Position numbers and translations under genes: made by a program. A stretch of DNA of 56,697 bases from a virus: UHGV virus genome UHGV-0866312. One strand, written 5' to 3'. Positions 532 through 55,081 of the stretch are shown one piece after another. Position 1 is the first letter of the stretch. Every line of letters begins with the position of its first letter. The notes under the pieces were generated by a model. The model saw nothing but the letters and a program-made list of their open reading frames with translations, was not told the origin of the DNA and did no database searches.

Positions 532-726
532 AGCAAGGGTACAGGGTGGGGGCTAGGGGGTATCTGACCAAAAAAACCATGAATATAAAATATCTATGTC
601 AGAAATAACATCCAATAGCAGTGAGGTATCAGTGAGGGTACAGTGAGGTATCAGTGAGGTATCAGCAAGAGTGCTACATTATCTGTTATTACAGTAAGGG
701 TACTGGGGGTACTACTGGGATTGACC
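532..726. repeat. pac/cos-like non-coding structure: two related G-rich boxes (532-571, 691-726) flanking 4 tandem 11-bp repeats cagtgaggtat (619-662)
   Basis: Direct reading. AAGGGTACAGGGTGGGGGCTAGGGGGTATCTGACC and AAGGGTACTGGGGGTACTACTGGGATTGACC, plus cagtgaggtat/cagtgagggta/cagtgaggtat/cagtgaggtat. The G-runs are atypical for this AT-rich genome. Confidence 0.6.
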
Positions 727-1024
727 TTTTATTAAAAGTTAAAACAGCCCACAAAAAATTACATACTGAAAATATGCTGTGAAACAGTGTAACTCTTTTA
801 TAACTCTATAGCAGTCTATTATAGCTGTTTAAATTCAGAGTAAACAAATTATACCTAGAACACACAAAGTCTACTCACAGAGGCACACAGAGAGTTATAG
901 GGCTATTCTAGCAGTCATTAAATGCTGTGGCTGGTGCTGGGCTGGGGCATTCATATTATCTGCTATAACTTCTTTTATTTTATATTTTCTTTATACAAAA
1001 TATCTGTAGTTATATATCTAATAC

Positions 1025-1065
1025 AGGTAAAAATATTGACCTAAAGATAATAACTATATATAACT
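1025..1065 (+). promoter_or_regulatory. near-consensus sigma-A-type promoter (TTGACC-N17-TATAAC); copy 1 of a 41-bp exact repeat
   Basis: -35 TTGACC at 1036-1041, a 17-nt spacer, -10 TATAAC at 1059-1064, and an A-rich upstream stretch. The identical 41 bp recurs at 30464-30504. Confidence 0.65.
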
Positions 1066-1150
1066 TATATTTCTTTGAAATATCTTTATATAACAGTATA
1101 TATACAGAGAATATAAGAGTAATAATGTTATTAAAATTTTTGCTAGTCTT

Positions 1151-1200
1151 TTGTCACAATAATACCCCAGTAGGTATATATTATACTATAAAGATTAAGG
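1151..1200 (+). promoter_or_regulatory. TTGTCACA element + dyad ATACCCCagtaGGTAT + TATAAAGATTAAGG box (class 1 recurring intergenic cassette)
   Basis: Motif shared with 14 other intergenic sites (see findings). Confidence 0.55.
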
Positions 1201-1239: not shown

Positions 1240-2133
1240 ATGGCAAAAATAATAAGAGGATTTAATTTCAGTGATATTGAGGCTTTTGTTGAGGGGTGCT
1301 ATTTCCTTTGTACTAGTGACTATGGCAACTTTGTTGAGGGCAATATATATGAGGGTGTTTTAGATTTAAACCCTAACACTATTTATCCTTTCTATGTTTT
1401 TGAGGATGATGATGTAGATGAGGCAATGTGGACTGATGCTAGATACTTTGAATTAATCCACAGACCTATTACAGAGGATGACTTAGTAGATGGAATGGTA
1501 TTTAAGGGTTATGGCTTATCTAATAAAGAGTATGTCTTAAATATTGTAGATGGCACTTATTTAATTACTGGTAAAGAGTATGGCACTACTTACTGTGACT
1601 ATAGCACAGTAGCAAGGACATTAAATGCTATGAATAATGTTACTGTATTACCACATCTAACAGTACCACAATATGGCTTTGTACCACTAGGAGTACCAGA
1701 GGCTACAGATGAGCCAGATGATTTAGAATTACCATTACCTAGTTTGTGGGCTGATGATGTTAATTTAGATTTAGGGGCTATTTTAGTCTTTGGTAAAGAT
1801 GGTGAGACATACAAAAATGCTGATTTAGAATTAACAATAACTGATAATGCTATTGTGCTTAATAAGGCTATAGCTGAAATACCTACAAAGGGCTGGCACT
1901 TAGTTACAAAAGAAAAGGTAACTTTAATTACTATTGAGCATAAGCCAAATGGTAAAGGCTATGTATTCAGATTAGCAGATAAGCTAAATAACAGCCCTAT
2001 AGCAGTAGGTAACATTGTAGTTAAAAATGATGTACAAGGTAGAGGCTATGCCAAAGTGCTAAAAGTAGAAGTAGTAGAAATGACAAAAGAAGAGAAAGCA
2101 GAATATAAAGAAATAATTGACATAGTAGATTAA
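1240..2133 (+). CDS. hypothetical protein (297 aa, acidic)
   Basis: Long ORF with an RBS-like AAGGGG upstream. No recognisable motifs. Confidence 0.55.
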   Translation: MAKIIRGFNFSDIEAFVEGCYFLCTSDYGNFVEGNIYEGVLDLNPNTIYPFYVFEDDDVDEAMWTDARYFELIHRPITEDDLVDGMVFKGYGLSNKEYVLNIVDGTYLITGKEYGTTYCDYSTVARTLNAMNNVTVLPHLTVPQYGFVPLGVPEATDEPDDLELPLPSLWADDVNLDLGAILVFGKDGETYKNADLELTITDNAIVLNKAIAEIPTKGWHLVTKEKVTLITIEHKPNGKGYVFRLADKLNNSPIAVGNIVVKNDVQGRGYAKVLKVEVVEMTKEEKAEYKEIIDIVD

Positions 2134-2173
2134 TAGCTGTGGGGCTGGCTGTAGCCCCTGTACATAAAATGGT

Positions 2174-2431
2174 GTGGCTACCATAAAAGCTGAAAGGGTT
2201 TATAGTATGAGTAAAAAATTAAAATTCTACCTAGTAGAGAGGAATGATAGATGCAGTTATGATGAGTTTGATAGCTGTGTAATAACTGCTGACAATGAAG
2301 AAACTGCAAAGGAATTAGCTTATACACTTAATAATAGGTGGCATAAATCTTTTACACCAGAGACAGTAAAAGTAACTGAAATAAAAGCAGTAGAAAATAA
2401 AATAATTCTAGCTAGTTATAATGCTGGTTAA
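2174..2431 (+). CDS. hypothetical small protein (probable start at 2207, MSKKLKF)
   Basis: ORF. Its leader ataaaagctgaaagggttta is identical to the leader of the gene at 55557. Confidence 0.45.
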   Translation: MATIKAERVYSMSKKLKFYLVERNDRCSYDEFDSCVITADNEETAKELAYTLNNRWHKSFTPETVKVTEIKAVENKIILASYNAG

Positions 2432-2445
2432 TAGGGGGTGGGGTT

Positions 2446-2640
2446 ATGGTTAAAGCTAGATATTTTTATGATGATACTTTTTGTTTTAATTTTGATGATG
2501 TTGAAACATTTCAAGATTACTATGACAATATTTTAGCTACTGATGATAATTTAATGGTGCTAGAGTTTGATGGTAACAAGAAACCTAGTGACCCTGTGCC
2601 AGTCAAATTAACAGTTATTAAGGGTGGTCAAAATGATTAA
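2446..2640 (+). CDS. hypothetical small acidic protein (64 aa)
   Basis: ORF with a GGGGTGGGG RBS. Confidence 0.4.
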   Translation: MVKARYFYDDTFCFNFDDVETFQDYYDNILATDDNLMVLEFDGNKKPSDPVPVKLTVIKGGQND

Positions 2641-3151
2641 TGAAATTTGGAAAGATATTGTAGGCTATGAGGGGCTTTATAAAATAAGCAACTTAGGTAA
2701 TATAAAAAGCCTTAACTATAAGAGGACTGGAAAAGCACAGAATTTGTCATTAAGCAAAAATAGGGCTGGTTACTACCATGTATTTCTATATAAAGATAGA
2801 AAAGGTGTAGACTTTGATATACACTGGCTGGTGGCATATCACTTTATAAGTTTTATTCCACAGGTAGGAATTAAATATCATGTAAACCATAAAGATGAAA
2901 ATAAACTTAATAATAGTTTAAGTAATTTAGAAATAATATTAATGCAAGAAAATTTTAATTATGGTACAGCTAGGCAAAGGTCAGCACTGGCACAGAGTAT
3001 ACCAGTGATTTGTATAGAGACTGGTGTGGTTTACTCATCAGCTAGTGAGGCTAGTAGGCAGACTGGTGCAAGGCAAGAAACTATAAATAGGTGCTGTAAG
3101 GGTAAAGCAAAAACATCTAATGGCTATCATTGGAGGTATGCAAATGAATGA
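2633..3151 (+). CDS. HNH homing endonuclease (NUMOD4-like N-terminus + HNH)
   Basis: N-terminal MINEIWKDIVGYEGLYKISNLGNIKS and the NHKDENKLNN motif. Clear paralog of 41896-42414. The ATG at 2633 overlaps the upstream stop. Confidence 0.8.
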   Translation: MINEIWKDIVGYEGLYKISNLGNIKSLNYKRTGKAQNLSLSKNRAGYYHVFLYKDRKGVDFDIHWLVAYHFISFIPQVGIKYHVNHKDENKLNNSLSNLEIILMQENFNYGTARQRSALAQSIPVICIETGVVYSSASEASRQTGARQETINRCCKGKAKTSNGYHWRYANE

Positions 3152-3503
3152 GGATATTGTAGCTAGAATGACCAATTTAGAGGGTAAAATTTGGCTTTAT
3201 AGTATCATCTATTATAGATTAGGTAGCAGTATTGTTACTGATAAAAAATATGATGATATTAGTAAGGAAATGAAGAGGCTAAAAGAGGAATACCCAGAGG
3301 AATTTAAAGCTAGTAAGCATTATGATGTATTTAAAGATTTTGAGTGGCAAAGTGGCTACTATCTACCTTTATATGATATACACATGACTGCTGTAGCAGA
3401 GTTTGTATTAATGGTTAATAATAAAGGTATGGAGGCTTACAAAGACCATGTAGGTAGAGAGCCTATTAAAATAAAAGGAAAAAGAAGAAGAAAGAGAGGG
3501 TAG
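3144..3503 (+). CDS. hypothetical protein, basic C-terminus (KGKRRRKRG)
   Basis: ORF whose start (ATGAATGA) overlaps the HNH stop, suggesting translational coupling. Confidence 0.45.
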   Translation: MNEDIVARMTNLEGKIWLYSIIYYRLGSSIVTDKKYDDISKEMKRLKEEYPEEFKASKHYDVFKDFEWQSGYYLPLYDIHMTAVAEFVLMVNNKGMEAYKDHVGREPIKIKGKRRRKRG

Positions 3504-3523
3504 TAGAAATACTACTCTTTTTT
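3500..3523 (+). terminator. rho-independent terminator
   Basis: ggtagtagaaatactactc followed by TTTTTT. Confidence 0.65.
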
Positions 3524-3594
3524 AATAGTTTTTTGTCACAGATATACCCCACTGGGCATATACTTATAGTATAAAACAAAAAGGGGTGTAATTT

Positions 3595-4479
3595 ATGATA
3601 GTTACAATAGGGAAAAGCAATAGAAAGAGTGATATAAAAGACTTAACAAAGAAAAGAAAGGCTGTGAATTTACCAAAGTCTACAAAGGAATTTGAAAAGC
3701 TAATAGGGCAAGCAGAATACAGCACAAAGAAATACTTAGATAGAAGTAAATTAACTGATAAAGAGTTAATGGCTGTAGATGCTTATGAGAATATCACCAG
3801 CTTTGGTAGTGATGTAGCTGACTGCTTTGAGGACTTATTAGAAGAGTTAGGCAGAATACCTACACAAGAGGAATATGTAAATAGAGGTGTGGAATTAACT
3901 AGCATGTGGTGGTGTGAGGCTATATTAAAGCATGATAATAGGGTACTGGGTATTAACTTTGAGGGTGCTGTAGTGGATGCCTGTAAAGATAGATTAGGCA
4001 GAGGCTACATTAGTATGGTCAATGAATTACACACAAAGCTATTGTTAAAAGAGATTTACCCAAAGGCTAAAGTAATATCACATGACTTACTAGATTTATT
4101 ACTAGGTGTAGATATTGTTTTAGAGTTAGATAAGAAAAGATATTATATTCACATCTTTAAAGATAGTCATTATGGTGTGCAAGCTTTTTACAATAAAGAG
4201 CAAAGAGGTGGCATTAATAAAGATGGTAAGTTTATCAAGTATCAAAGAGACTTTACAGGTGATGTAAGGCTACAATATTTAAGCAGAGATACTAACAGTG
4301 ATAAATGTAAATTCATAAATGGTATGCCAGTGTTTACAAGGGAATGGCTAGAGGGGTACTTATTTATGGTCACTAGGAGCAGTAAATTTGGTGAGAGATT
4401 AGATGCAGAGGATAGCAAGCTGGATAAGTTAAAGGCTTTTGTATTTGATAACTTTGGTCAAAGAGTAGAATTTAAGTAA
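3595..4479 (+). CDS. hypothetical protein (294 aa); possible PD-(D/E)XK-like nuclease motif GVDIVLELDKK
   Basis: ORF preceded by a class 1 GTCACA cassette. The motif assignment is weak. Confidence 0.45.
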   Translation: MIVTIGKSNRKSDIKDLTKKRKAVNLPKSTKEFEKLIGQAEYSTKKYLDRSKLTDKELMAVDAYENITSFGSDVADCFEDLLEELGRIPTQEEYVNRGVELTSMWWCEAILKHDNRVLGINFEGAVVDACKDRLGRGYISMVNELHTKLLLKEIYPKAKVISHDLLDLLLGVDIVLELDKKRYYIHIFKDSHYGVQAFYNKEQRGGINKDGKFIKYQRDFTGDVRLQYLSRDTNSDKCKFINGMPVFTREWLEGYLFMVTRSSKFGERLDAEDSKLDKLKAFVFDNFGQRVEFK

Positions 4480-4559
4480 TTAATTATATGATGGTGTCTA
4501 CTAAATGGTTATATTAGTGGACACTATCAGCATTATAGAGTATGATAGAGGTAGGATTT

Positions 4560-5438
4560 ATGAGTAAGAAAATATTACATTTATTCCAATGGAAATTAAC
4601 AGATATTATTACAGTATTACCAAAGGTAAAAGAGCAAGGCTTTGATGCTATACAAGTATCACCATTGCAAGGTACTAAAGATGCTGGATATGAGTGGTGG
4701 AAATTATACCAGCCCACAAATTTTAAAATAGGTAATTCACAGGTAGGCAGTAGGGATGACCTTATTAAACTTTGTGGCAAAGCACATAACTTAGGTATAG
4801 AGGTTTATGTAGATGTAGTATTAAGGCATGTAGCTGGTGATGATTACCACCATTTAGTACCACATGATACTGTAGATGCAGACATTAAGCCAGAATATTA
4901 TTACTGCTTTGATGAATGTAATGACTACAATAATAGATATGAATATACACATAAATGTACTGGGATGCCTATGCTAAATTATTTTAGTCATGATGTACAA
5001 GATATGTATATTAATTACTTAGATGACCTTGTTTGCTGTGGTGTGGATGGCTTTAGATTAGACCAGCTAAAACACTATGCCTTACCTGTAGAGGGCTGTG
5101 ATTTCCTACCTAGAGTATTTGGTAGATACACTGATAAATATATCTATGGTGAAATTATATTCAGTGATAAGGTGCTGTTAAATGCATATTCAAAATATAT
5201 GAATGTACTAACAGAGGGTAGCTGTGATAATAAAGATAGGCTGGTTACTTTTGTAGAAAGCCATGACAGCTATTTAGAGTTTGGATATACAAAGAATATG
5301 AGTAATGAAATGTTATTAATGGAATATGACCACCTAGTAAATGAATGTGATTTTAATACATTATTCTATGCTAGACCATTTAATAATTTATGGTTATCAA
5401 GTGAAATTAAAAAGATAAATTTGAAAGGATGTATTTAG
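4560..5438 (+). CDS. GH13 alpha-amylase family catalytic-domain protein
   Basis: Conserved GH13 regions: DVVLRH (region I), GFRLDQLKH (region II), GEII (region III), FVESHD (region IV). The N-terminus has the AIQVSPLQ barrel start. There is no domain C. Confidence 0.7.
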   Translation: MSKKILHLFQWKLTDIITVLPKVKEQGFDAIQVSPLQGTKDAGYEWWKLYQPTNFKIGNSQVGSRDDLIKLCGKAHNLGIEVYVDVVLRHVAGDDYHHLVPHDTVDADIKPEYYYCFDECNDYNNRYEYTHKCTGMPMLNYFSHDVQDMYINYLDDLVCCGVDGFRLDQLKHYALPVEGCDFLPRVFGRYTDKYIYGEIIFSDKVLLNAYSKYMNVLTEGSCDNKDRLVTFVESHDSYLEFGYTKNMSNEMLLMEYDHLVNECDFNTLFYARPFNNLWLSSEIKKINLKGCI

Positions 5439-5439
5439 A

Positions 5440-6030
5440 ATGAATAAGGCTTATATGAGATTATCACAAAAGGACAGCATTAAAAATGGCAATGGCTTTG
5501 ACAGGCAAAAGCATTTATTAAAGGATATAGAAATAGATACATGGTATCAAGATGTTATTAGTGGTGCTAAAAGAAATAGACCACAGCTAGATAAGATGCT
5601 GGAAGAGTTAGAGGCTGGGGATATTGTTTATATACCAGCTATTGACAGGTTATCAAGAAGTACAAAAGACCTTTTAGAAATTGTAGAGATAATTAAAAAT
5701 AAGGGTGCTTACTTAGTTAGCATTAATGATACATGGTTAGATACAAGGGCTAGTAACCCTATGTCAGATTTCCTTTTGACTGTTATGGGGGCTATGGCAC
5801 AGCTAGAGAGGGATATGATAGCTAAAAGAATTAAGCAAGGTGTAGAAAATGCTATAGAGCAAGGCAAGGTTATAGGCAGACCACCAGTAAACAGTGACAG
5901 AGTATTAGAGGCTGTCAAGATGTATAAAGAGACTGGTAAGAGCATGAGGGAAATAGAGGCTATTACAGGGGTCAGTAAATCAGCAATATCAAAAGCATTA
6001 AAGAAAAATAAGACAATTTCAGAGCAGTAA
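5440..6030 (+). CDS. small serine recombinase (resolvase/invertase family) with C-terminal HTH
   Basis: YMRLSQKDS with a catalytic Ser context, DRLSRS, and the C-terminal HTH SMREIEAITGVSKSAISKAL. 196 aa. Confidence 0.7.
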   Translation: MNKAYMRLSQKDSIKNGNGFDRQKHLLKDIEIDTWYQDVISGAKRNRPQLDKMLEELEAGDIVYIPAIDRLSRSTKDLLEIVEIIKNKGAYLVSINDTWLDTRASNPMSDFLLTVMGAMAQLERDMIAKRIKQGVENAIEQGKVIGRPPVNSDRVLEAVKMYKETGKSMREIEAITGVSKSAISKALKKNKTISEQ

Positions 6031-21573: not shown

Positions 21574-24500
21574 ATGTTTTATTTATATGAGGGTGGTGGA
21601 AATAAACCAAAATTATTAGGTGTCCTAGATACTGATGTAGATAGTACAGAAAGCTGTTTAGTATTGTCAGCAATAGCAAAGCACAAAGTAAATAGTATTT
21701 CTACTTTAGACATTGCTATACCAGCAGACCACAGCTTAAATAGCTTAATTACTGATACTACAGATATAGTATTCTTTGACACTTATGGTGAGCCACAAGA
21801 GTACCATATTACAGAGATTGAGGATATACATGATGATAGCCTAGACAGGTATTTATATTGTGAACATTCAGCAATAGAATTAAATGACAGTATCATTACA
21901 GAAACTATGAGCAATGCCAGCAGTGGTGACCCAGCAGACTATTTAGCATTTATCTTATCATTTACAAGATGGCAAGTAGGTACAGTGGATGAGGGTGTAT
22001 ATAACTCTAAGTGGAATGGTATAAATGACCTTGTAGGTAAAAATTGTATGGTAGCTTTGGGTGAGTTTATCAGCAAGTATAACTGTGAGGTATCTTATAG
22101 ATTTACTATTAAAGATAATGTTATTACTGGTAGATATGTTGATATTAAAAAGCAAGTAGGTAATGACTATGGTAAAAGATTTAGCTATGAAAAGGACATT
22201 AATTCATTAAAAAGGACTGTAGATGCTAGTGGTGTTAAAACTGCTATTTTCCCTAGAATTGCTGTAAATAATTCTAGTGAGGAAAGTGGAGAAAGTAGCA
22301 CATCATATATTACTATAGCTAATGTAACATGGAATACTGCAAATGGTAACCCAGTTAATAAGCCTTTAGGTGATGTTATCCTAGTTAATTCTGATATTTC
22401 CTATAAGTATCAAAGATTAGATAAAGCTACAGGTAAATTAATTCACAGGGTTATGTATGCAGAATGGACACAGGAAACTGCTACAGATGCAAATGATTTA
22501 ATTAATCAAGCATGGTTAATCCTAAGAGCAAACAGCACACCTAAAATAAACTATGAATGTAATGCCAGTGACTTATATTTATTGAGTGGTAAAGATGTTA
22601 ATTTATCACATGAGCATGTAAAGCTAGGTGACAGGGCTGTAATTCTTGATAAAGCTTTTAAACCAGAGATAAGAGTTAAGAGTAGAATAATGGAAATGAC
22701 AGAGGATTTATTAGACCCTACTGCTAATAATTTTGTTTTTGGTAATACAAAAGCTACTTTAAGTACATCTAGTGTAGACCAGCAACAAAGCTTAGAGGAA
22801 CAATTACACCAATTAGAGAACAAATTACCAGAGTACACATTACCTTTCCAAAATGGTAAGCCTTACTATGATGCTATCAAGCAAGAGTTAAAAGATGAAT
22901 TTGTTACATCTAGTGGCTATGTAATGATAGAGAATGATAATGGACTTTGGGTATTTGATAGACCAGCAGATTTACAACCTACAAAAGCTGTAATTGTTAA
23001 GGGTGGTAATATTGGTTTAGCTAAATGGAATACACAAACATCTAGCTGGGAATTAGGTACTTTTATTAATGGTACTAGTGTTAATGCTGACTTTATCACT
23101 ACAGGTCATTTAAGTGGTGATGTTATTGAGGGTCACAGCATCACAGCAGACCATTTAACTGTAGAGGCAATAGAATTTATTAAGACTGGTTTAGCTAGTG
23201 AGGATGACTTAAATAAGGCTGTAGAGGATATTACAAAGGTTAAGGATGATATTACTGGTATTAATAATGAAATTACTAATATTAATAAGACTATTGATGA
23301 GGCTATAAAAGGTACACTAGATGCTAGTAAATTGAATATCATTAATAATAACTTATTATTGTTAGATGCAGAGTATAACAATTTAATAGCTAGAGCAAAC
23401 AGTGTATATAATAATCAGTATTTAATAGGACAAAATAAGGTAGATTTAGACACAGCTAGAACAGCTTACAAAACTGCTTACACTGAATACACAACTTATG
23501 TAAATACTATTATTGCTGATAAGTTAGTAACTGATGCAGAATACACAGAATATGTACAAAAAACTACTACTTATAATACTGCTTTAGTGGCTATTAATAC
23601 TGCTATTGAAGATGCTAACACTGATATTATCAATAATGTATATGCACAAGCTAGACAGGGGCTAGTAACTACAGCAGATTTAGAGGTAAATAATCAAAGT
23701 GTAATTGCTAGTGCTAAGTTAGGTATGGTTAGTACAGGTGATATGACAGAGGCTATACAAATGGCTACAAAGGATTTAGTAGCTACTGGTGAATTACAAG
23801 AAATTATAGATAAGGCTACTAGTGATTTAACTACTACAGATGAATTAACAGCAGAAATTACAAAGGCTAAAATAGCATCAATACAAGAAACATTTAAGCC
23901 TATCACTACAGAGTATAAAGGGAATTTACAACAAGCAAATACCATTTATGCAAATGCTAATTTAACTGGTACAGCTAAGACAAATTTGAATACTGCTAAG
24001 ACTGATTACACAAGCAAGTATAATGCTTTAGCTACAGCTATCAAGAATATTGTAGATAATAATTCAATAGCAGAGACTTATATGACAGCTTATAATACTG
24101 CTTTAGCTAATTTACAAACAGCTACTACTACTTTAGGTCAAAGACTACAAGAGGCAATAGCAAGTATTAACAATGCTATTTACAGCAATGCTAAAAATTA
24201 TGCAGATGGATTAAAGACTACAATAGATGCCAGCATTAAAGATGTAGCAGATAGTGTAGGTGGATTAAGGGAAGAGGTTACCACTTCTTTTAAAGATGGT
24301 ATCATTTCACAAGCAGAGACAATAGCTTTACAAAAGCAAATAGATTTACTTACTAAGGAAAAGAATAGTATAGATACAGAGTTTACTACTGTTTATGAAA
24401 ATACTGACTTGACTGGTACACCTAAGACTGATTTAAATACTAAGAAAACTGCTTATAATACAGCACACACTAATTTAATAACAGCTATCAATACTGCTAT

Positions 24501-27500
24501 TAAAGATAATAGTATTACTAGTGATGAGAGCAATGATGTAAATGCTAAATTTACTGCATATTGTTCAGCTTTATGTGAGGTTAAATGTGCTTTACAAACT
24601 GCTATAGATGCCATTGCTGATGCTAAAAGTAATGGTGCTTATACTAATGCTAAAAAATATGCTGATGGATTAAAAACTACTACAGATAAAAGTATCAGTG
24701 ATGTTAATAGTGCTGTAGGTACTTTAAGAAAGGATGTAACTACTACTATTAAAGATGGCATAGTATCAGAGGCAGAGGCTTTAGCAATTAAGTCTAATAT
24801 TCAAGTATTAAACAGTGAGAAAGCTGATATTGATAAAGAATTTACTACTATCTATGCAAATGGTAATTTAACTGGTACAGCTAAAACAGACCTTAACAGT
24901 AAAAAGACAGCTTATAATACAGCACACACAAATTTAATAAATAGTATTAACAATGCTACTGCTGATGGTAAAGTAACTACTACTGAAAAGGCTGATATAG
25001 ATAGCAAGTTTACTGCTTATAGCACTGCTTTAGCTAACTATAAAGGTGCTTTACAAACTGCTATAGATAATATTGCTAGTAATAAAAGTAATACTGTTTA
25101 CACTAATGCTAAGAAGTATGCAGATGATTTAAAAACTGCTACAGACAAAAGCATAAGTGATGTTAATAGTGCTGTAGGTACTCTAAGGAAAGATGTTACT
25201 ACTAGTATTAAAGATGGTATTGTATCAAATGCAGAGGCATTGTCTATAAAGAGTAATATAGATGTTTTAAACATGGAGAAAGCTGATGTAGATAAGGAAT
25301 ACACTACTTTGTATGCTAATGCTAACTTGACTGGTACACCTAAAACAGAATTATCATCTAAGAAAACTGCTTATAATACAGCACATACAAATTTAATAAA
25401 TAGTATCAATAATGCTGTTAAAGATAATGTAGTTACTACTGCTGAAAAGACAGATATAAATAGTAAAATGACTGCTTATTCTACTGCTTTAGGTAACTAC
25501 AGGGTAGCTGTACAAAATGCTATTGATGCTATAGCTAGTAATAGGGCTAATAGTGCTGTAAATAATCTTATTGTAGGTGCAAGAAATTTAGCATTAAAGA
25601 CTAGTAATGACTGGGTATCATTTACTAACTTTACTGGTATAACTAATGACTGTAGAGGTGGTTATACTGTTTTAACTGATGGATTAAATGTAGGTGATAG
25701 CATCACTATTACCTTTGAGTATAAGTTAGAAAATATGACTTATTCTACTGCTGGTAATATAAGATTTTATCTACAAGGTAGTGGGGATGTTACAGCATGG
25801 AATAGTGGTAGTTTTCCATCATCACCAGTACCTAGTATGGTAGCTAATGCTACTGGTACAGTAAGCTACACAGCTAAAATAACTGCTGACCATTTAAAAA
25901 ATAGTAGCTGGGGTACAAACTTTAGAACAGATTACATTACTGGGGGTAAAATTTCAGTAAGAAGAGTAAGAGTTACAAAGGGTAATAAGCAAATTGACTG
26001 GACACCAGCACCAGAGGACACTACAAGTGCTATTAACAATGCTGTAAAAGATTTAGCTAGTCTAAATGATGTAACTACAGCCCAAAATAATGCAGTTATA
26101 AAAGCAAATATTGAGGCTATTAAACAGACTTATTCTGCTGTTAAGACTGAATATAACAATAACTTACAACAAGCCACAACAACTTACAATAACAGTTACC
26201 TAGCTGGTACTGCTAAAAGTTATCTTAATAGTGCTATTACTGGGTATAAAGAAAAATTTAGTGCTGTTACTACTGCTTACAATAATATTGTTACTGATAA
26301 TACACTATCATCTAGTGAGTTATCAGCATGGAATACAGCTATAACAAACTTACAAAGCTATACTACTACACTAGCTTTAAGATTATCAGAGGCTATAAAC
26401 TATATTAATACTGCTGTGTATAATGCTAGTAAAAAATATACTGATGAAACTATTCCAGATAAATTGACTGGATATGCTAAAACTAGCTATGTAGATGATG
26501 CAAAGGCACAAGCTATTAAAGATGCAAAAGCTGGCATGGTATCTACTAGTGATTTACAAGTAAATAATAGTGAGATACTAATGACTACATCTAAGATGGG
26601 TCAGTACAATATGCTTAAAAATACAGACTATAGAAATGGTACAGACCATTGGAGTAAATATAGTGTACCTAGTGGAGTAAACTGGGATATAGTAACTGAT
26701 ACTGATGCCTGTGTTATTGCTGGTGAAAAAGCTTTTAGAGTAGGCTTTACATCAAGCACAGCAAATAAATATGTAAGTTATGGTATGTCACAAACAGTAG
26801 CATTAAAGGCTGGTGTATCTTACACATTAAGCTACTGGTTAAATACTCTTAATGCTGAAGCAAGGGTTAGTATTTTTAACCCACCTTTTAGTAGTGAAAT
26901 AGCATCTAAGACATATGGTGCTACTAATGGTAACAACAAAAGGGAGACACACAAGTATGACAGCATAACATTTACACCTACTATATCTGGTAGCTATCAC
27001 ATTGTATTTACTATCAATAAGGCTATTAATGCTAGCTGGGCTGGTATATTTGTAACTAAGCCTATGCTATGTACTGGTATCAATGCACAAGCATGGACAG
27101 GTCACCCAGATGAGATATATGTAGGGGTAGTTAGTATTACAGAGGAACATGGTATTAAGGTAGAGCATAGTGATGCAAATACCTACAGTAGTTTAGATGC
27201 TACTGGCTTAAAGATTTGGGAATATAACAATGATAACCCTGTGGCATCTTTTGGTGATGGTAATACTGCTTATATAAGCACTGTTAATACAAAGAAATTA
27301 ATTGCTGATAATGTTACACCTACAATAACAGTAGATGGTAACTATTCTTATTACTTTAGCAATACTGGTAGTGGTGACTATTCTGGTAAAGATAGTAGTA
27401 ACTGCTGTGCTGGGTTTACAGGTGCTATGGCTAGAATGTGTGATGATTTTGGTATAGATAGGACACACACAAAGGGTAATTTTTTCATGCAAGGTAATGG

Positions 27501-28521
27501 TACTTTAAATTTCTTTTGTCATGGTAGTGTACATGATGAGGATTTTTATTTAGAAAATATCTATGGTACTGCTAAAATTACTTTTGGTTTTGTAAAAGAA
27601 TTAACTATGTCTGGCTCATTTAAAATGCTTAATATTCAATGTCCATTTAGAATGTTTGGTAATAGAAGTAGCAATAATGTTAATGAGGGTTGTTTATTCA
27701 AAAGAAATGGTAGTCAAGATGGTATTTATTTAAGGCACTGTAGTTCAGTAGAGATAGAGGGATTTAGATTTAATAGTACAAGTAATGCATCACAATCTGG
27801 TATAGCCTGTGTAGATGGTACTGTAGCATGGATAACAAACTGTGATGTATATAACTACAAGTGGGGTATATATATTGCTAGACAGGCTACTGTATATATG
27901 AAAGATAATAGAGGTACAAGTGGTTCTTGTGGGACTTATTTGCCAGATAGAGGTATATGTGTTTATGGTGGTACTATATGTGCTGGTAACATTAATAACA
28001 CTGTACCTTACAATATTTTTATTGCTAATAACAGTGCTGTTAGATTAACAGATACAGGAGGGTCACCAGCTTATTCATTACAAGGTGCAAAGCCTATAAC
28101 ATCACAAACAATTACTAACTCATTCTCACCTACTGCTTATAGATGTGTGGCTAATTACACTATTGATGGTGAGATAAGACAGGGTAGCTGGAATGGTGCT
28201 ACTAGTGACTGGACTGGGTATATTTACTTTGGGTCAGCACCACAAAGCTTTTTAAGTGGTGGGTCAAACTCATCAGCACAAATATACCTACAAAGAAGAG
28301 GTACAGCACATGGTTACTATTCAGCAGTACCAGTAATTATAGCTGGCACTAATGTAGGCTCATTGTCAATAGGTGAGGGTAAATGGTTTAGCTTACCATC
28401 ATCAGCACTATCAGCTATTGCTAGTGGTAACCCTGTGACATTAACAGGTAAAGGTAACTCACAATATATTAAATTTGAAAGTAATTCAAGTGTTAGAATA
28501 ACAACAACAAAAAGGGTATAG
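21574..28521 (+). CDS. giant tail fiber/Tal-like receptor-binding protein (2315 aa)
   Basis: Position after Dit. Central coiled-coil region with 3 tandem ~153-aa repeats. Two jelly-roll CBM-like modules (...IDWTPAPED). C-terminal right-handed beta-helix-like region with NxxG/Cys-rich repeats. Confidence 0.8.
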   Translation: MFYLYEGGGNKPKLLGVLDTDVDSTESCLVLSAIAKHKVNSISTLDIAIPADHSLNSLITDTTDIVFFDTYGEPQEYHITEIEDIHDDSLDRYLYCEHSAIELNDSIITETMSNASSGDPADYLAFILSFTRWQVGTVDEGVYNSKWNGINDLVGKNCMVALGEFISKYNCEVSYRFTIKDNVITGRYVDIKKQVGNDYGKRFSYEKDINSLKRTVDASGVKTAIFPRIAVNNSSEESGESSTSYITIANVTWNTANGNPVNKPLGDVILVNSDISYKYQRLDKATGKLIHRVMYAEWTQETATDANDLINQAWLILRANSTPKINYECNASDLYLLSGKDVNLSHEHVKLGDRAVILDKAFKPEIRVKSRIMEMTEDLLDPTANNFVFGNTKATLSTSSVDQQQSLEEQLHQLENKLPEYTLPFQNGKPYYDAIKQELKDEFVTSSGYVMIENDNGLWVFDRPADLQPTKAVIVKGGNIGLAKWNTQTSSWELGTFINGTSVNADFITTGHLSGDVIEGHSITADHLTVEAIEFIKTGLASEDDLNKAVEDITKVKDDITGINNEITNINKTIDEAIKGTLDASKLNIINNNLLLLDAEYNNLIARANSVYNNQYLIGQNKVDLDTARTAYKTAYTEYTTYVNTIIADKLVTDAEYTEYVQKTTTYNTALVAINTAIEDANTDIINNVYAQARQGLVTTADLEVNNQSVIASAKLGMVSTGDMTEAIQMATKDLVATGELQEIIDKATSDLTTTDELTAEITKAKIASIQETFKPITTEYKGNLQQANTIYANANLTGTAKTNLNTAKTDYTSKYNALATAIKNIVDNNSIAETYMTAYNTALANLQTATTTLGQRLQEAIASINNAIYSNAKNYADGLKTTIDASIKDVADSVGGLREEVTTSFKDGIISQAETIALQKQIDLLTKEKNSIDTEFTTVYENTDLTGTPKTDLNTKKTAYNTAHTNLITAINTAIKDNSITSDESNDVNAKFTAYCSALCEVKCALQTAIDAIADAKSNGAYTNAKKYADGLKTTTDKSISDVNSAVGTLRKDVTTTIKDGIVSEAEALAIKSNIQVLNSEKADIDKEFTTIYANGNLTGTAKTDLNSKKTAYNTAHTNLINSINNATADGKVTTTEKADIDSKFTAYSTALANYKGALQTAIDNIASNKSNTVYTNAKKYADDLKTATDKSISDVNSAVGTLRKDVTTSIKDGIVSNAEALSIKSNIDVLNMEKADVDKEYTTLYANANLTGTPKTELSSKKTAYNTAHTNLINSINNAVKDNVVTTAEKTDINSKMTAYSTALGNYRVAVQNAIDAIASNRANSAVNNLIVGARNLALKTSNDWVSFTNFTGITNDCRGGYTVLTDGLNVGDSITITFEYKLENMTYSTAGNIRFYLQGSGDVTAWNSGSFPSSPVPSMVANATGTVSYTAKITADHLKNSSWGTNFRTDYITGGKISVRRVRVTKGNKQIDWTPAPEDTTSAINNAVKDLASLNDVTTAQNNAVIKANIEAIKQTYSAVKTEYNNNLQQATTTYNNSYLAGTAKSYLNSAITGYKEKFSAVTTAYNNIVTDNTLSSSELSAWNTAITNLQSYTTTLALRLSEAINYINTAVYNASKKYTDETIPDKLTGYAKTSYVDDAKAQAIKDAKAGMVSTSDLQVNNSEILMTTSKMGQYNMLKNTDYRNGTDHWSKYSVPSGVNWDIVTDTDACVIAGEKAFRVGFTSSTANKYVSYGMSQTVALKAGVSYTLSYWLNTLNAEARVSIFNPPFSSEIASKTYGATNGNNKRETHKYDSITFTPTISGSYHIVFTINKAINASWAGIFVTKPMLCTGINAQAWTGHPDEIYVGVVSITEEHGIKVEHSDANTYSSLDATGLKIWEYNNDNPVASFGDGNTAYISTVNTKKLIADNVTPTITVDGNYSYYFSNTGSGDYSGKDSSNCCAGFTGAMARMCDDFGIDRTHTKGNFFMQGNGTLNFFCHGSVHDEDFYLENIYGTAKITFGFVKELTMSGSFKMLNIQCPFRMFGNRSSNNVNEGCLFKRNGSQDGIYLRHCSSVEIEGFRFNSTSNASQSGIACVDGTVAWITNCDVYNYKWGIYIARQATVYMKDNRGTSGSCGTYLPDRGICVYGGTICAGNINNTVPYNIFIANNSAVRLTDTGGSPAYSLQGAKPITSQTITNSFSPTAYRCVANYTIDGEIRQGSWNGATSDWTGYIYFGSAPQSFLSGGSNSSAQIYLQRRGTAHGYYSAVPVIIAGTNVGSLSIGEGKWFSLPSSALSAIASGNPVTLTGKGNSQYIKFESNSSVRITTTKRV
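24187..25565 (+). repeat. three tandem ~459-bp repeats inside the tail fiber gene
   Basis: Repeat starts at 24187, 24646 and 25106 (aatgctaaaaaWtatgcWgatg...). Partial additional copies lie at about 23880-24180 and 26100-26440. Confidence 0.75.
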
Positions 28522-30085: not shown

Positions 30086-30094
30086 TGATATAAG

Positions 30095-30121
30095 AGGGTA
30101 GCAGAAATGCTACTCTTTTTG
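30095..30121 (+). terminator. rho-independent terminator gggtagcagaaatgctactc+T (sequence reused at 41209 and 45026)
   Basis: Stem-loop followed by a T-run after the endolysin. Confidence 0.7.
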
Positions 30122-30463
30122 TTTGCCCCTACAATGCCCCTAGAGGCTTTTATAACAGCTTTTATTATAGAGTAGACTTACTAGACCTTTAAATTAAAGT
30201 CTATTCCTAGAGGCTGTTAGGGCTATTTATAAAGGTGGTTTACAATATTTTTCTAGTAAAACAAGAATGGCACTATCACTGGCTTATAAAAAATAGAGTT
30301 ACATATTAATTCAGCAAAGAGGCTGATAGGTTAAAAGGCTATTGTTATGTATACCATATGTCACAGAAAATAGGACAGGTGCATATATTAATAGGTGAGG
30401 ATATAACTGCTATAACTTCTTATATCTTTTATATATAACAACAAAGTAACTGTTAAATAATAG

Positions 30464-30504
30464 GTAAAAATATTGACCTAAAGATAATAACTATATATAA
30501 CTAT
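30464..30504 (+). promoter_or_regulatory. near-consensus sigma-A-type promoter (TTGACC-N17-TATAAC); copy 2 of the 41-bp exact repeat
   Basis: Identical to 1025-1065. Its upstream ~60 bp (ctgctataacttctt...) is also similar to 961-1024. Confidence 0.65.
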
Positions 30505-30608
30505 TTATTTTGTATTATCTTACAGTAAAATATTTTACCTTTATTAAAAATGTCACAGTATCAAATAAAATGCTTATTTAATAGTAAAGAATGATTGAGG
30601 TGATATTT

Positions 30609-30950
30609 ATGAATAAACTTAATTTATTTTCTTACTATAAGAATGTTGATAATACAGAGGTAAATGGTGTGCTAGTAAATAGTAAACTTTTTGAAAGTGG
30701 TGCTTTAGGTGAGATAGGTGTTAATAATTTTATAGTGCTTTGTTGTATCTATTCATACAAAGATAATTCTAACATTAGCCATATTAGTATTAGGAATATA
30801 GCTAGTTTAACAGGATTTTCAACAACTACAGTACAAAAATGTATTAAAGAGTTAAAAAATTATGGCTATTTCACAGTTAAACAAGTTAAAGAAAAAGGGT
30901 CAAACTTCATACAAAATGTATATGACTTTACTGAATGTAAGGGGGCTTAA
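30609..30950 (+). CDS. winged-helix protein, paralog of the replisome organizer N-terminal domain
   Basis: NSKLFESGALGEIGVNNFIVLCCIYSY...TTTVQKCIKELKNYGYF aligns with 30953 (KDLFESGAIKELGINKFTVLSCIY...PTVIKCIKELENDGYF). Confidence 0.55.
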   Translation: MNKLNLFSYYKNVDNTEVNGVLVNSKLFESGALGEIGVNNFIVLCCIYSYKDNSNISHISIRNIASLTGFSTTTVQKCIKELKNYGYFTVKQVKEKGSNFIQNVYDFTECKGA

Positions 30951-30952
30951 AT

Positions 30953-31678
30953 ATGCAAGAGTTAAACAGATATATAGAGTTTAATAGTGTAGGTAATATT
31001 ATTGGTGCTGGTGTGAAACTTAATAAAGACTTATTTGAAAGTGGGGCTATTAAGGAATTAGGTATTAATAAATTCACTGTATTAAGCTGTATCTACTGCT
31101 TTATCAATAGTGATTATGAAAGTTACCCTAGTATTAGGACAATAGTAAAACTTACAGGTATTTCAAAGCCTACAGTAATAAAGTGCATCAAGGAATTAGA
31201 GAATGATGGTTATTTCAAAGTTAAAAACATCAAGGAAAATGGTGCTATATATATTCACAATGTTTATGAATTTCCAGCACCTAGTAAAGTTGATACAAAG
31301 GGATATGATGAGCCAGATAATGAAAAGGCTTTGACAGCTAGAGACTACATTAGCTTATGGTGTAGCAAATATAGTGAGGCTTTTGGACACAGCTATACAC
31401 CTAACTATAGGAAAGATTGTAGTATGTTTAAAAATAAGATAATGGCTAATTATGAGCAAGCTGACATTATTAAAATGTTAGATATTCTATTCACTCAATA
31501 CAGTAGAAAGTGGAGCAAGAAAGGATATGAGTACCCCACTATAGGTGCTTTTTGTTCATGGTTATATCAAGAATGTTATAGAGAAATTCAGCTAAACAAA
31601 GATAAAGAGGAAAGAATGAAAGAAGTAGCAAGAAAGGCAGAGGATAATGATACCTTTGATAAATTTATGAATATGTAG
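30953..31678 (+). CDS. phage replisome organizer/replication initiator (N-terminal winged helix)
   Basis: Phage_rep_org_N-like N-domain and position before the helicase loader. Confidence 0.55.
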   Translation: MQELNRYIEFNSVGNIIGAGVKLNKDLFESGAIKELGINKFTVLSCIYCFINSDYESYPSIRTIVKLTGISKPTVIKCIKELENDGYFKVKNIKENGAIYIHNVYEFPAPSKVDTKGYDEPDNEKALTARDYISLWCSKYSEAFGHSYTPNYRKDCSMFKNKIMANYEQADIIKMLDILFTQYSRKWSKKGYEYPTIGAFCSWLYQECYREIQLNKDKEERMKEVARKAEDNDTFDKFMNM

Positions 31679-31690
31679 GAGGTGTAGCCT

Positions 31691-32458
31691 ATGGCAGTAG
31701 AATGTAAGGAATGTTGCTTTTATGATACCTGTAAAAAGAGAGATAACAGCACTGGCACATGTTATCCAAATGTGCTGATGTATGGTGCAAAAGGTAATAC
31801 AGGAATATGGAAAGCAGTAGGAGTACCAAAAAGGTATAAAAAGTGTAGATTAGATAATTTACCAATTAAAGCAGAAAACCCAAAAGTATATAAGATGGTA
31901 GAAAAGTATATAGGTAATGTCATTGCTAATGTACTAGATAAAAATATTAGCTTGTATTTATATTCAATACCTGTGCCAGACAATAAATTAGGTGTAGGTA
32001 ATGGAAAGACCACCACAGCAGTAACTATATTAAATCATTTCACTATTGAGATATGTAGGGCTTATTTAAAAGGTCAATATAAAGACTTGTTTAATCAAAC
32101 TAACCCTAGCTTATTTGTAAAATGTAGTGAATTTCAAAATGTATATAATGCACAATTTAGAGGTAATGAAATGCAAAAGGAAGATGCCAGCATTAGGTAT
32201 TATTCATTAAAAAACAGTATGAAAAAAATACCCCTACTGGTATTAGATGATATTGCTATAAGAAATAGTACAGAGGCTTTTTTAAATGAATTATATGAGG
32301 TTATAGATGCCAGAGTAAATGAGGAATTAACTACTATCTACACTAGTAATGTCACACTAGAAGAGGTTAGCAGTATCTTAGATGATAGAGTGAGCAGTAG
32401 GATTAGTAGCAACTGTGTCATTATTGGTATGACTGGTAAAGACCACAGAGGACTATAG
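31691..32458 (+). CDS. DnaC/IstB-like helicase loader ATPase with N-terminal Cys cluster
   Basis: Walker A GVGNGKTTTAV and Walker B LLVLDDIA. Confidence 0.65.
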   Translation: MAVECKECCFYDTCKKRDNSTGTCYPNVLMYGAKGNTGIWKAVGVPKRYKKCRLDNLPIKAENPKVYKMVEKYIGNVIANVLDKNISLYLYSIPVPDNKLGVGNGKTTTAVTILNHFTIEICRAYLKGQYKDLFNQTNPSLFVKCSEFQNVYNAQFRGNEMQKEDASIRYYSLKNSMKKIPLLVLDDIAIRNSTEAFLNELYEVIDARVNEELTTIYTSNVTLEEVSSILDDRVSSRISSNCVIIGMTGKDHRGL

Positions 32459-32469
32459 GGGGTGAATGA

Positions 32470-33723
32470 ATGTTAGAATGTAAATTATTATCAAAAGTAA
32501 TTACAGAGCATTGCTACTTTGAATTGAATAGATACAATGTAGGCTATGGTGATTTTTACACTCAAAAGAAAGCATACAAATTTATAAAGGAATATGTAGC
32601 AGAGTTTAAGCAAGTACCCTCTTATGAGACTGTGGTAGCAGAGTGTGAGGACTTTGACTATATACCAGAGGTAGCAGATAGTATAGGTTATTTATGTAAG
32701 ACCTTAAAGAGTAACAGGGCTAGGAGAGAGGCTTTTGATTTACTACAAAATAAAGCCAGTGACCAATTTAATAAGCTAAAAGGTAATGACTTCATTAACT
32801 GGCTATGTGAGGAAACCCAAAAGATAAAAGATGTAACAGAGGCTACCAGCTATACAGGTAGTAACTGGGCTAAAAATGGTGAGGAAAGAAAGAATAGATA
32901 TGAAGAGGCTAAAAGAGGTGAAAGCATCATAATACCTACACCTTATAACAAGCTAAATAAGGGCTTTGCTGGTGGTATGTATGGTGGTGACTATTTAATG
33001 CTTTTTGCTTTTACTAACAAAGGTAAGTCATGGATATGTTGCCAATTTGGTGTAACTGCATGGACTAATAATTTTGATGTATTACACTACAGCCCAGAGG
33101 AAAACAGGGCAAAGGTAGAAAGTAGATTAGATACAGTATTAGGACATTTCAGTAATACTCATATCAAGAAAGCTGACCTATATAATGAGGATGAATATTT
33201 TGGATATTTAAGTGCTTTCAATGAAAATACACAGCATGACTATTTAATAAAGACAATGGAAGATTTACCAAAAGGGTTAAGCTGTGATGTTATAGAGGCT
33301 GACTTATTAGCACACCCAAATACTAAAATGGTTATAGTGGATGGATTAAACCTTATGAGAGGAATAAGCAATAATAACAGGGATAACATCACATATAACA
33401 GTAGAAGAATAAGACAAATGGCAAATAGGTACAATGTAGTATTTGTAGTATCACATCAAGTCAGTAAGCAAGGAATGAAAGAAAGTGAGTTTACTGATGA
33501 AAGTGGATTAAGAATAGTAAGCCCACCAAAGCTAGACAGCTACAGTGAGGGCATAGCTACAATACAAGACCCTACAGCAGTATTAAGCTATGACTATAGT
33601 GATGGTATTGGTAAATTCCTTGTAGCTAAAAGTAGGGATAACAATAAAGATGATGAGATAGAGTTACAAGTACAGTATGATACTGGATATATTACAGAGG
33701 TAGAGGAATGTGATTTTATCTAA
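32470..33723 (+). CDS. DnaB-like replicative helicase
   Basis: RecA-like domain with TNKGKS Walker A, 417 aa, positioned after the loader. Confidence 0.55.
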   Translation: MLECKLLSKVITEHCYFELNRYNVGYGDFYTQKKAYKFIKEYVAEFKQVPSYETVVAECEDFDYIPEVADSIGYLCKTLKSNRARREAFDLLQNKASDQFNKLKGNDFINWLCEETQKIKDVTEATSYTGSNWAKNGEERKNRYEEAKRGESIIIPTPYNKLNKGFAGGMYGGDYLMLFAFTNKGKSWICCQFGVTAWTNNFDVLHYSPEENRAKVESRLDTVLGHFSNTHIKKADLYNEDEYFGYLSAFNENTQHDYLIKTMEDLPKGLSCDVIEADLLAHPNTKMVIVDGLNLMRGISNNNRDNITYNSRRIRQMANRYNVVFVVSHQVSKQGMKESEFTDESGLRIVSPPKLDSYSEGIATIQDPTAVLSYDYSDGIGKFLVAKSRDNNKDDEIELQVQYDTGYITEVEECDFI

Positions 33724-33852
33724 TAGTAAGGGTGACACAATATTGTCACTCTTTTTCTATGTTTGGGTGTTTGAATATTCAAAAATGTCACAGCATGTAT
33801 GTTACTGAATATAATTATATTAGAAAATTGAAAATAGAAGTGGGGTGGTAAT

Positions 33853-41303: not shown

Positions 41304-41903
41304 ATGGCAAATGTGATTAATAACAAAGATAGATTAGCAATATTTGAAAAGGAATTAGGCTTTTACCACAGTAATAATATCAGAGAATTTGCAAAGCTAT
41401 TAGTAGCTGAATTACCTAACTATTTCTTTTTTGTAGCCAGCAGTGCTACAGGTAAATATCACCCAGAATATGCAAATGGTGAGGGTGGCTTAGTAAGACA
41501 TACACAGGCTGGTATGAGAATAGCTAAAAGCTTATTTACTATTAGTGACTTTACTATAGAGGAAGAGGATTTAATTTTATTGGCTTTACAATTTCATGAC
41601 AGCATTAAAAGGGGTAGAGGCATTGACAGTGGACATACAGTGTATTTGCATCCTATCTATGCTAGTAGATTTATTATGCAGTATTACTATGACCATATTG
41701 AAATAACAAAGACACTTATTACTGGTGAGGATTTAGAAATAGTTTGTAGAGCAATACAGAGCCATATGGGGCAATTCAATAAGGATGGTGAGGGTTACCC
41801 TATTCTACCTGTACCAGTTACACCACTACAAAAATTTGTACATGAATGTGATTATTTAGCATCAAGGGCATTTTTAGAGGTGAATTTTAATAAAAATGTG
41901 TAA
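41304..41903 (+). CDS. HD-domain phosphohydrolase
   Basis: H...HD motif (KYHPEY...LQFHDSIKRG). Confidence 0.6.
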   Translation: MANVINNKDRLAIFEKELGFYHSNNIREFAKLLVAELPNYFFFVASSATGKYHPEYANGEGGLVRHTQAGMRIAKSLFTISDFTIEEEDLILLALQFHDSIKRGRGIDSGHTVYLHPIYASRFIMQYYYDHIEITKTLITGEDLEIVCRAIQSHMGQFNKDGEGYPILPVPVTPLQKFVHECDYLASRAFLEVNFNKNV

Positions 41904-48749: not shown

Positions 48750-48799
48750 TGTCACAAATAATACCCCCTAGAGTATTTATTACCACAGGGGGTGTGCAT

Positions 48800-55076: not shown

Positions 55077-55081
55077 TACAA

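Follow-up and report, generated by a model that had tools for sequence, protein, structure and literature searches.

The gp38 protein of phage SPP1 binds repeats at two places: oriL, which lies in gene 38, and oriR, which lies in an island of moron genes in the late region (PMC6316719). oriR has been proposed to stall forks and to trigger the switch to concatemeric replication (PMC6316719). In phage lambda, the O protein binds imperfect inverted-repeat iterons of 19 base pairs (bp) beside an AT-rich region (PMC7466680). Here we describe a pair of sites of similar layout in UHGV virus genome UHGV-0866312, a stretch of 56,697 nucleotides (nt) that is called the window below. It is a Clostridium-type siphophage genome of ~56.7 kb with 33% G+C, all genes on the + strand and strong Shine-Dalgarno sites, and the closest described phages are Clostridium phages vB_CtyS-FA70 (FA70) and FA67 (59% protein identity in TerL and 46% in DNA polymerase I). 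The element in question is a 41-mer, AGGTAAAAATATTGACCTAAAGATAATAACTATATATAACT, that occurs exactly twice on the + strand, at 1025-1065 (locus A) and 30462-30502 (locus B). A site that, like this one, is matched at two loci and is exchanged along with the DNA-binding domain of the neighboring initiator is best explained as the recognition site of that initiator. The reading that we favor, with a probability of about one half, is that the two loci are paired initiator-binding, origin-type sites like oriL and oriR of SPP1, with lineage-specific recognition sequences and perhaps with promoter activity in the window's lineage.

An earlier note, made from the letters of the window, had already reported the 41-bp identity; the repeat is exact as described, but the second copy had been placed 2 nt off, at 30464-30504. 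No third copy with three or fewer mismatches was found in the window, and 100 shuffles gave no match. The similar stretch that had been seen some 40-60 bp upstream of each copy is a 15-mer, CTGCTATAACTTCTT, which holds a TATAAC box and lies at 960-974 (+), 50 nt before copy A, and identically at 30407-30421 (+), 40 nt before copy B. The 10-nt difference in distance amounts to one helical turn. An alignment of five sequences shows the repeat to be part of one duplicated module of ~105 nt or more. The 41-mer is the core of this module of ~105-150 bp, which is made up of the 15-mer box, an AT-rich spacer, a variable segment of 28 nt and a conserved 13-nt box, ACTATATATAACT. At locus A the variable segment, AGGTAAAAATATTGACCTAAAGATAATA, occupies 1025-1052 (+) and includes TTGACC at 1036-1041, and the conserved box occupies 1053-1065 (+) and includes a -10-like TATAAC at 1059-1064. 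The corresponding parts at locus B are 30462-30489 and 30490-30502, both +, with TTGACC at 30473-30478 and TATAAC at 30496-30501. In both copies the spacer between the hexamers is 17 nt.

The variable 28 nt contain an 18-bp imperfect dyad, AGGTAAAAATATTGACCT. At locus B they form the left arm of an inverted repeat, the other arm being an imperfect third copy on the - strand at 30513-30540 that matches at 21/28 positions (P about 0.0005, reached by 1/2000 shuffles). This inverted copy contains a perfect palindrome, GTAAAATATTTTAC, at 30525-30538, which is unique in the window. Locus B thus holds two inverted copies of the AGGTAAAA(A)TATT..ACCT dyad around the conserved box, directly upstream of the initiator, loader and helicase genes. 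Locus A holds one dyad and lies in the island of accessory genes between terS and terL. Both modules are among the four most AT-rich stretches of 100-150 nt in the window, with 82% A+T in the modules and 85-88% in their flanks, against 67% in the genome. They are also the only places with at least three TATAAC boxes per 200 nt. This clustering is only suggestive: block shuffles reach three or more in 40/200 cases, and the duplication itself accounts for two boxes per module.

The two copies had been assigned to the two largest non-coding regions of the genome. Both regions are indeed long, 789 nt for the one with copy A (451-1239) and 505 nt for the one with copy B (30086-30590; 523 nt if the first gene starts at the ATG at 30609, which is preceded by a ribosome-binding site), but a further one is of about the same length as the second. 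A contig of a relative continues from the last bases of the window into its first bases, so the map is circular or permuted, and the non-coding region that wraps around the ends (56209-56697 plus 1-33) measures 522 nt.

The evidence that carries the argument comes from a sister phage, ~90% identical in nucleotides and 95-100% identical in most proteins, that was obtained from two Logan samples, with contigs L002 and L003 covering locus B and L008 covering locus A. A third lineage, L013, from another sample, covers locus A only. The sister comparison took in the relatives' genome outside ~41.2-54.1 kb, the interval in which the sigma-like gene lies. At locus A, L008 has a discrete island replaced at ~996-1060, with flanks of at least 90% identity on either side. 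The gene downstream also has a diverged part, which is a separate patch 550 nt further on. Being discrete and bordered by conserved flanks, the island at locus A was not carried along by a larger exchange. The upstream 15-mer is kept in L008 as CTGTTATAACTTCTT and the conserved 13-nt box has one change there; the variable 28 nt are replaced by unrelated sequence. At locus B, L002 and L003 are ~100% identical to the window as far as 30443, the 15-mer included, then unrelated for ~100 nt, and similar again at a GTCACA element of the phage's main promoter-like class (described below). The divergence at this locus, in which the inverted copy also falls, extends from 30436 to 31330 and comprises the cassette and the part of the initiator gene that codes for the winged helix.

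The replacement in the sister phage is common to both loci and reads CTGTGTCACTA(A/G)CTGTCAC..., in full CTGTGTCACTAGCTGTCACTAAACTAGATACTGTATATAACT at locus A and CTGTGTCACTAACTGTCACTTAACTAGATACTGTATATCTAT at locus B; in place of the variable 28 nt of copy B, L002 and L003 carry CTGTGTCACTAACTGTCACTTAACTAGAT. Only the last 13 nt of the sister cassettes, ACT(A/G)TATATAACT, are homologous to the 41-mer of the window. Since the same replacement is found at both loci and homology is confined to these 13 nt, the 5′ 28 nt were replaced in step with each other at two loci that are 29 kb apart. A search of related phages for the same duplicated region, which the earlier note had proposed, shows that the sister phages carry a different sequence, shared by both loci, in place of the 5′ 28 nt. 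The suggestion in the same note that selection acts on more than the hexamers, for example through an overlapping operator, is favored by this concerted exchange. The boxes of the sister cassette number two in tandem at locus A and three at locus B, the third box at B matching at 13/18 positions (P about 0.01). L013 has a third cassette at locus A, CCTGTATCATTTTTAATACTAAAGATAATACTGTATCTAACT, between conserved flanks, with neither a -35 nor a -10 hexamer; the 15-mer is replaced in this lineage.

The 13-mer ACTATATATAACT has a wider distribution. It is found in the equivalent non-coding regions of FA70, before the initiator gene, and of L005, a relative with 50% identity in TerS, after terS. In both, a dyad-like sequence that differs from that of the window was seen by eye ~10-14 nt 5′ of the 13-mer. 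The boxes were not found in the TerS-50% group. The 41-mer and a 25-mer from the conserved flank had no match in IMG/VR, the JGI metagenomes or the GTDB genomes, and protein-guided scans of the same three collections found no relatives. A comparison with INPHARED phages gave no match to either non-coding region, further proteins of the window had no hit in exact look-ups, and cluster look-ups gave nothing beyond the two known samples and the one third lineage (locus A only).

The initiator gene next to locus B (30953-31678, +) encodes 241 residues, with a winged helix at about residues 35-107, a linker and a helical C-terminal domain, and is followed by genes for a DnaC-like loader and a DnaB-like helicase. 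Its N-terminal domain is O-like or DnaD-like by PHROG 270/678 (about 1e-10), by Pfam HTH_36 and by tblastn matches to the N-termini of phage proteins annotated as replication protein O. A structural model of low confidence (predicted local distance difference test, pLDDT, 63) places a helix-turn-helix with a wing at residues 38-106, followed by a disordered linker and then by a helical C-terminal domain, and its fold matches are generic winged-helix DNA binders. Window and sister phage share ~45% identity in the N-terminal domain and ~98% in the C-terminal half; their predicted recognition helices are SKPTVIK (window) and STTTVQK (relatives). In this one evolutionary contrast, therefore, the cassettes at both loci and the N-terminal domain of the initiator differ together, and the flanks and the C-terminal domain are conserved. 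A shorter open reading frame (ORF) precedes the initiator gene at 30609-30950 (+). It encodes, from an ATG preceded by a ribosome-binding site, a winged helix alone (113 residues; Pfam HTH_36 3e-9; O-like/DnaD-like by PHROG) and is a tandem duplicate of the initiator's N-terminal domain, ~50% identical to the initiator domains of both window and relatives (nucleotide repeat D6, 71%).

Two other proteins that might have set the specificity of the site do not vary with it. TerS is 100% identical in the sister lineage (L004) despite the other cassette. The small serine recombinase encoded at 5440-6030 is 98% identical in L008, which also has the other cassette, and its recognition-helix stretch, ITGVSKSAISKALKK, is unchanged, with one E-to-K change just before it. 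As both proteins are essentially unchanged between phages whose cassettes differ, both are excluded as the specificity factor, and a pac or terminase recognition site and a res- or hix-like site of the small recombinase were rejected. It also counts against a recombinase site that the copies are direct repeats 29 kb apart, between which recombination would split the genome. Extra copies of TTGACCTAAA in the primase gene (34611-34775) were considered as binding sites and rejected as well: they code for a Phe-Arg-Ser motif that is repeated, and the relative with the other cassette has them unaltered.

From these observations we infer initiator binding, origin activity and any promoter activity at the two loci, in the following way. 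The variable 28 nt would be the phage-specific recognition site for the winged-helix domain of the initiator, and possibly also for that of its paralogue at 30609-30950. Locus B would be the probable primary origin, where initiator dimers bind and the AT-rich DNA opens, and the conserved C-terminal domain of the initiator would then bring the DnaC-like loader and the DnaB-like helicase to it. Locus A would be a second initiator-binding locus, analogous to oriR of SPP1, which could be a further origin or, with initiator bound, a roadblock aiding the switch to concatemer synthesis. Initiator bound over the TTGACC-N17-TATAAC look-alike could make transcription autoregulated and coordinated in the window's lineage. 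Promoter activity of the window version would be compatible with an origin, and a promoter controlled by the initiator would unite the two.

The likeness to SPP1 is one of layout. In both there are two distant, similar sites with AT-rich DNA and with repeats, which in the window are putative initiator-binding ones; one site is at the initiator gene and the other in an accessory ("moron") segment lying within the packaging and morphogenesis genes, which it interrupts. The window also has an SPP1-like replication toolkit, with an initiator, a helicase loader, a DnaB-type helicase, SSB, a 5′-3′ exonuclease and a Holliday-junction resolvase, and with all genes on one purine-rich strand. The likeness concerns this arrangement and not the sequence of the sites. 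Whereas oriL lies inside gene 38, the window sites lie ~90-150 nt upstream of the genes, and in place of direct repeats they have a long element containing a dyad, one or two per locus. Unlike SPP1, the window phage carries a large serine recombinase and so is probably temperate.

The resemblance to lambda is in the protein and in the form of the site. The initiator of the window has an O-like N-terminal domain (by profile and tblastn) and is built of two domains, the N-terminal one variable and the C-terminal one conserved. Classical comparisons of lambda, phi80 and 82 reportedly gave the same division, the N-terminal DNA-binding part of the initiator being lineage-specific and the C-terminal part conserved. 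The proposed site has the form of a lambda iteron: an imperfect inverted repeat around a central A/T tract, with AT-rich DNA beside it. Lambda, however, has a single origin with at least four tandem iterons inside the O gene, and the window has two loci outside the gene, each with one or two sites. A third comparison is with the stoperators of cluster A mycobacteriophages and the C1 operators of P1, which are sets of 10-30 dispersed sites plus a repressor gene, the sites coevolving with the repressor. There, too, identical asymmetric or dyad sites lie far apart and differ between relatives together with a DNA-binding protein. The window differs from them in having two loci only and in that the co-varying protein is a replication initiator; moreover, another palindrome family looks like its operator set.

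Several observations weigh against an origin-type function. There is a single full evolutionary contrast, the window against one sister lineage, with the third lineage informative at locus A only, and another diverged DNA-binding protein may be encoded at ~41.2-54.1 kb of the relatives' genome. Classical origins have 3-6 iterons; here there is one dyad at A and two at B. With A, B and the inverted B', the lineage-specific element is present three times in the window, which makes fewer boxes than in those origins. The sister cassette has direct TGTCAC repeats instead of a dyad, and TGTCAC is similar, too, to the -35-like portion of the main promoter class. The window cassette, for its part, does resemble a sigma-A promoter with an A-tract. 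The recognition helix of the 113-residue ORF is that of the sister initiator and not of the window's own, and the relatives' cassette is not present in the window. Finally, the A/B duplication was not found in FA70, a more distant relative.

Should the favored reading hold, sequence alone suffices to locate both replication-control sites of an uncultivated Clostridium-type phage, and the two-origin layout of SPP1 extends to another phage group, which bears on the switch from theta to concatemeric replication. The phages would also provide a natural experiment on the coevolution of initiator and site, as the same backbone and flanks carry two or three alternative cassettes and winged-helix domains, and the cassette-plus-domain pairs would be candidate orthogonal replication modules. 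We tentatively suggest one step more, which may well prove wrong: a "replicon-specificity cassette", in which a hypervariable element of ~28 bp has to be kept matched at two places that lie 29 kb apart, almost on opposite sides of the circular map, and is swapped in one piece with the DNA-binding domain of the initiator. Coinfecting close relatives might thereby become mutually blind in replication initiation and perhaps in early transcription, which would be a phage counterpart of incompatibility-group switching in plasmids, brought about by the exchange of small cassettes within regulatory DNA that is conserved in other respects.

The repeat is also an example of how, in AT-rich DNA, likeness to a promoter can be misleading. 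The earlier note had read the 41-mer as TTGACC-N17-TATAAC behind an A-rich region, and each of these parts is there: a -35-like hexamer that matches TTGACA at 5/6 positions, a spacer of 17 nt as in sigma-A promoters, an AAAAATA tract just 5′ of TTGACC, sense orientation with the genes and an AT-rich intergenic position. To call it near-consensus was an overstatement. In the sigma-A -10 hexamer, TATAAT, the A at position 2 and the T at position 6 (the -7 T) are near-invariant; TATAAC has a C at position 6 and so falls short of a sigma-A -10. A sigma-70 scan that requires the final T of the -10 did not have the repeat site among its matches for this reason, and no alternative -10 hexamer was found at a spacing of 16-18 nt. 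With an approximate sigma-A matrix based on published consensus frequencies, the site ranks 42nd-43rd on the + strand. Sigma-70-like matches as a whole occur at chance frequency (16 vs. 15.2 expected from shuffles, 20 vs. 17.6, 44 vs. 42.4 and 33 vs. 35.9). In the relatives, the hexamers in register are CTGTCA/TATAAC (L008), CTGTCA/TATCTA (L003) and TAATAC/TCTAAC (L013), with sigma-A scores of 2.7-5.5 against 8.75 for the window. Nor do the copies head the two halves of the genome, as had been thought: the first + strand terminators after them are at 3492-3523 (A) and 33728-33753 (B), so that any transcript would span a few genes and not half of the genome, and at least 17 promoter-like elements of another class are spread through it. 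The sigma-A early promoters of Firmicute phages (PE of SPP1 and two TTGACA promoters of FA70) are alike in the -35-like TTGACC, the 17-nt spacer, the upstream A-tract and the sense intergenic position. The repeat departs from them in TATAAC, which has no -7 T, in hexamers that are not conserved in the sister phages and in the concerted exchange of its upstream 28-nt part at both loci.

As a promoter sequence, then, TTGACC-N17-TATAAC is possible but weak. A plain duplicated early promoter for the host RNA polymerase, which the earlier note had proposed and which would make the finding ordinary, would start transcripts ~7 nt after TATAAC and drive early transcription of 1240-3503 and 30591-33723, with the identity of the copies due to recent copying or to gene conversion. 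We hold it to be unlikely. A sigma-A look-alike could act in this way, and it speaks for such a promoter that the two copies are the only TTGAC-type sites heading gene blocks, the other recurrent elements being of the GTCACA class. Furthermore, FA70 has two textbook promoters, TTGACA-N17-TATACT/TATAGT, beside elements of the GTCACA class, so such phages use both types. Yet besides the poor -10 and the low rank, the hexamers are not kept at the same position in three other sequences, a host promoter would not predict the concerted replacement 29 kb apart or explain the inverted third copy at locus B, and the genes downstream already have a conserved promoter-like element. Another candidate is a factor-dependent promoter or operator with no origin function, in which the variable 28 nt bind a phage-specific regulator, either the 113-residue winged-helix protein or one in the unsampled part of the relatives' genome, that activates or represses transcription from the conserved ACTATATATAACT region and co-regulates the accessory island and the replication operon. 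The variable part is placed as a -35 or a class II activator site would be, upstream of a conserved -10-like box; dyad symmetry and concerted change at two loci are also what one would see, and the phage-specific dyad before ACTATATATAACT in FA70 and L005 fits as well. However, the conserved box never has a -7 T (the variants are TATAAC or TATCTA) and hence is a poor -10 in every lineage, the 113-residue ORF is not found in the relatives, which still have a cassette pair, and a separate, obvious operator family (TGTCCACTAAA..TTTAGTGGACA) already stands beside small regulatory genes at 54.6-55.5 kb. We think this explanation improbable too; a repressor operator as a reading of its own was rejected because that palindrome family accompanies the small regulatory genes, and it survives only as a form of the factor-dependent explanation.

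That the repeat has no specific function, being a duplicated AT-rich spacer whose copies are homogenized by short-homology gene conversion and whose lineage differences are neutral mosaicism, seems very unlikely. The phage is equipped for recombination, since it encodes a PDDEXK exonuclease, a RuvC-like resolvase and several HNH homing endonucleases; the short shared boxes that flank the cassette (the 15-mer and TATATAACT) could guide conversion, and mosaic patches occur elsewhere in the genome. Neutral exchange would nevertheless have had to replace an island between strongly conserved flanks in three lineages. In each of them, conversion would have had to cross ~28 nt without any homology, guided by very short matching stretches, and an extra lineage-specific copy is present at locus B in both cassette types. 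Two further candidates were tried and set aside. The sister cassette does not work as an ordinary promoter of the GTCACA class, the distance to any -10-like hexamer being 13-15 nt and not 17-18 (by eye). A structured non-coding RNA was rejected on fold z-scores of -1.4 and -2.0 with differing structures and of ~0 for the downstream stretches; neither non-coding region had an Rfam hit at E ≤ 1. As an observation apart from these, the variable cassette A is enclosed by an imperfect inverted repeat, 74-76% complementary over 29-31 nt, whose arms lie in the conserved flanks, at 965-995 and 1101-1131 in the window and at 332-360 and 470-498 in L008.

The dominant promoter-like class of the phage is (T)GTCACA-N16-18-TATWTA or CATAnnnTA. 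It has at least 17 copies, most of which directly follow a terminator hairpin and precede a ribosome-binding site by 30-60 nt. They lie on the + strand at 1153, 3535, 9400, 14503, 30360, 30552, 33787, 36076, 38508, 41237, 43335, 45053, 48750, 50441, 52456, 54766 and 55478. The genes downstream of A and B each have their own copy: GTCACA-N18-TATATT at 1153-1182 (+), directly before the gene at 1240-2133 and conserved in L007, L008 and L013, and GTCACA-N17-TATTTA at 30552-30580 (+), directly before the first replication gene and conserved in L002 and L003. A further GTCACA-N18-TATATT element, upstream of module B at 30360-30389 (+), shows 100% conservation in both L002 and L003. The same class occurs in FA70 (TGTCACAAT...CCTACATATAAT), in at least nine copies. 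We take the class to be nearer to the sporulation sigma-K-type consensus than to that of sigma-A. The window encodes a protein of 107 residues with sigma-70 region 4 only at 51396-51719. The operator-like palindrome family, TGTCCACTAAA-N10-TTTAGTRGACA, is found at 54650-55520 around three or four GTCACA-N18-TATAAT elements before the small genes at 54825-55922, and an extra copy lies at 4492-4535, before the accessory-island gene at 4542-5438.

The gene order around the two loci is as follows. The window starts with terS (34-450, +), after which come the non-coding region with copy A and the accessory island (1240-6030), which encodes proteins without assignment, an HNH endonuclease, a ligase-like fragment, an amylase-like protein and the small serine recombinase. 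The genes for TerL, portal, head, tail and lysis, all on the + strand, continue to 30085. Copy B is followed by the two winged-helix initiator-type genes, the DnaC-like loader, the DnaB-like helicase, primase, recombination and nucleotide-metabolism genes and PolA, and after PolA come the sigma-70 region-4-only protein, the large serine recombinase and small genes. The large serine recombinase (513 residues, 53061-54602) is a probable integrase. The small resolvase/invertase-type gene at 5440-6030 persists between terS and terL even where TerS identity is only 50% (L005 3585-4499; L014 13290-14114).

Other features of the genome deserve mention. The HNH endonuclease gene at 2624-3151 is not present in the sister phages L007, L008 and L013, in which the neighboring genes are otherwise kept; it looks like a recent homing-endonuclease insertion, beside a ligase-like fragment with just 70% identity. 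At 41896-42414 there is a paralogue (70-73% nucleotide identity over the aligned stretches), and further HNH-type loci are at 44034-44468 and 48749-49141. The accessory-island protein encoded at 4542-5438 matches the alpha-amylase catalytic domain (Pfam 2e-11) and is conserved in the sister phages. Just 3′ of terS there are G-rich tandem repeats, CAGTGAGGTAT about five times in the window (600-680), CAGAGGGCTAA at the same place in L013 (480-560) and CACCCAAC in a distant relative (L012 10990-11040). Their position is fixed and their sequence lineage-specific, and they may be a pac or terminase recognition array. At the other end of the map, the non-coding stretch 56209-56697 has at least 12 copies of (C/T)(A/T)GATAAT-type repeats, right before the junction with the window start and terS. 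Among the structural genes, the one for a tail-fiber-like protein of 2315 residues (21574-28521) has three internal repeats of 459 nt and is the most variable among the sister phages (82% and 66% identity).

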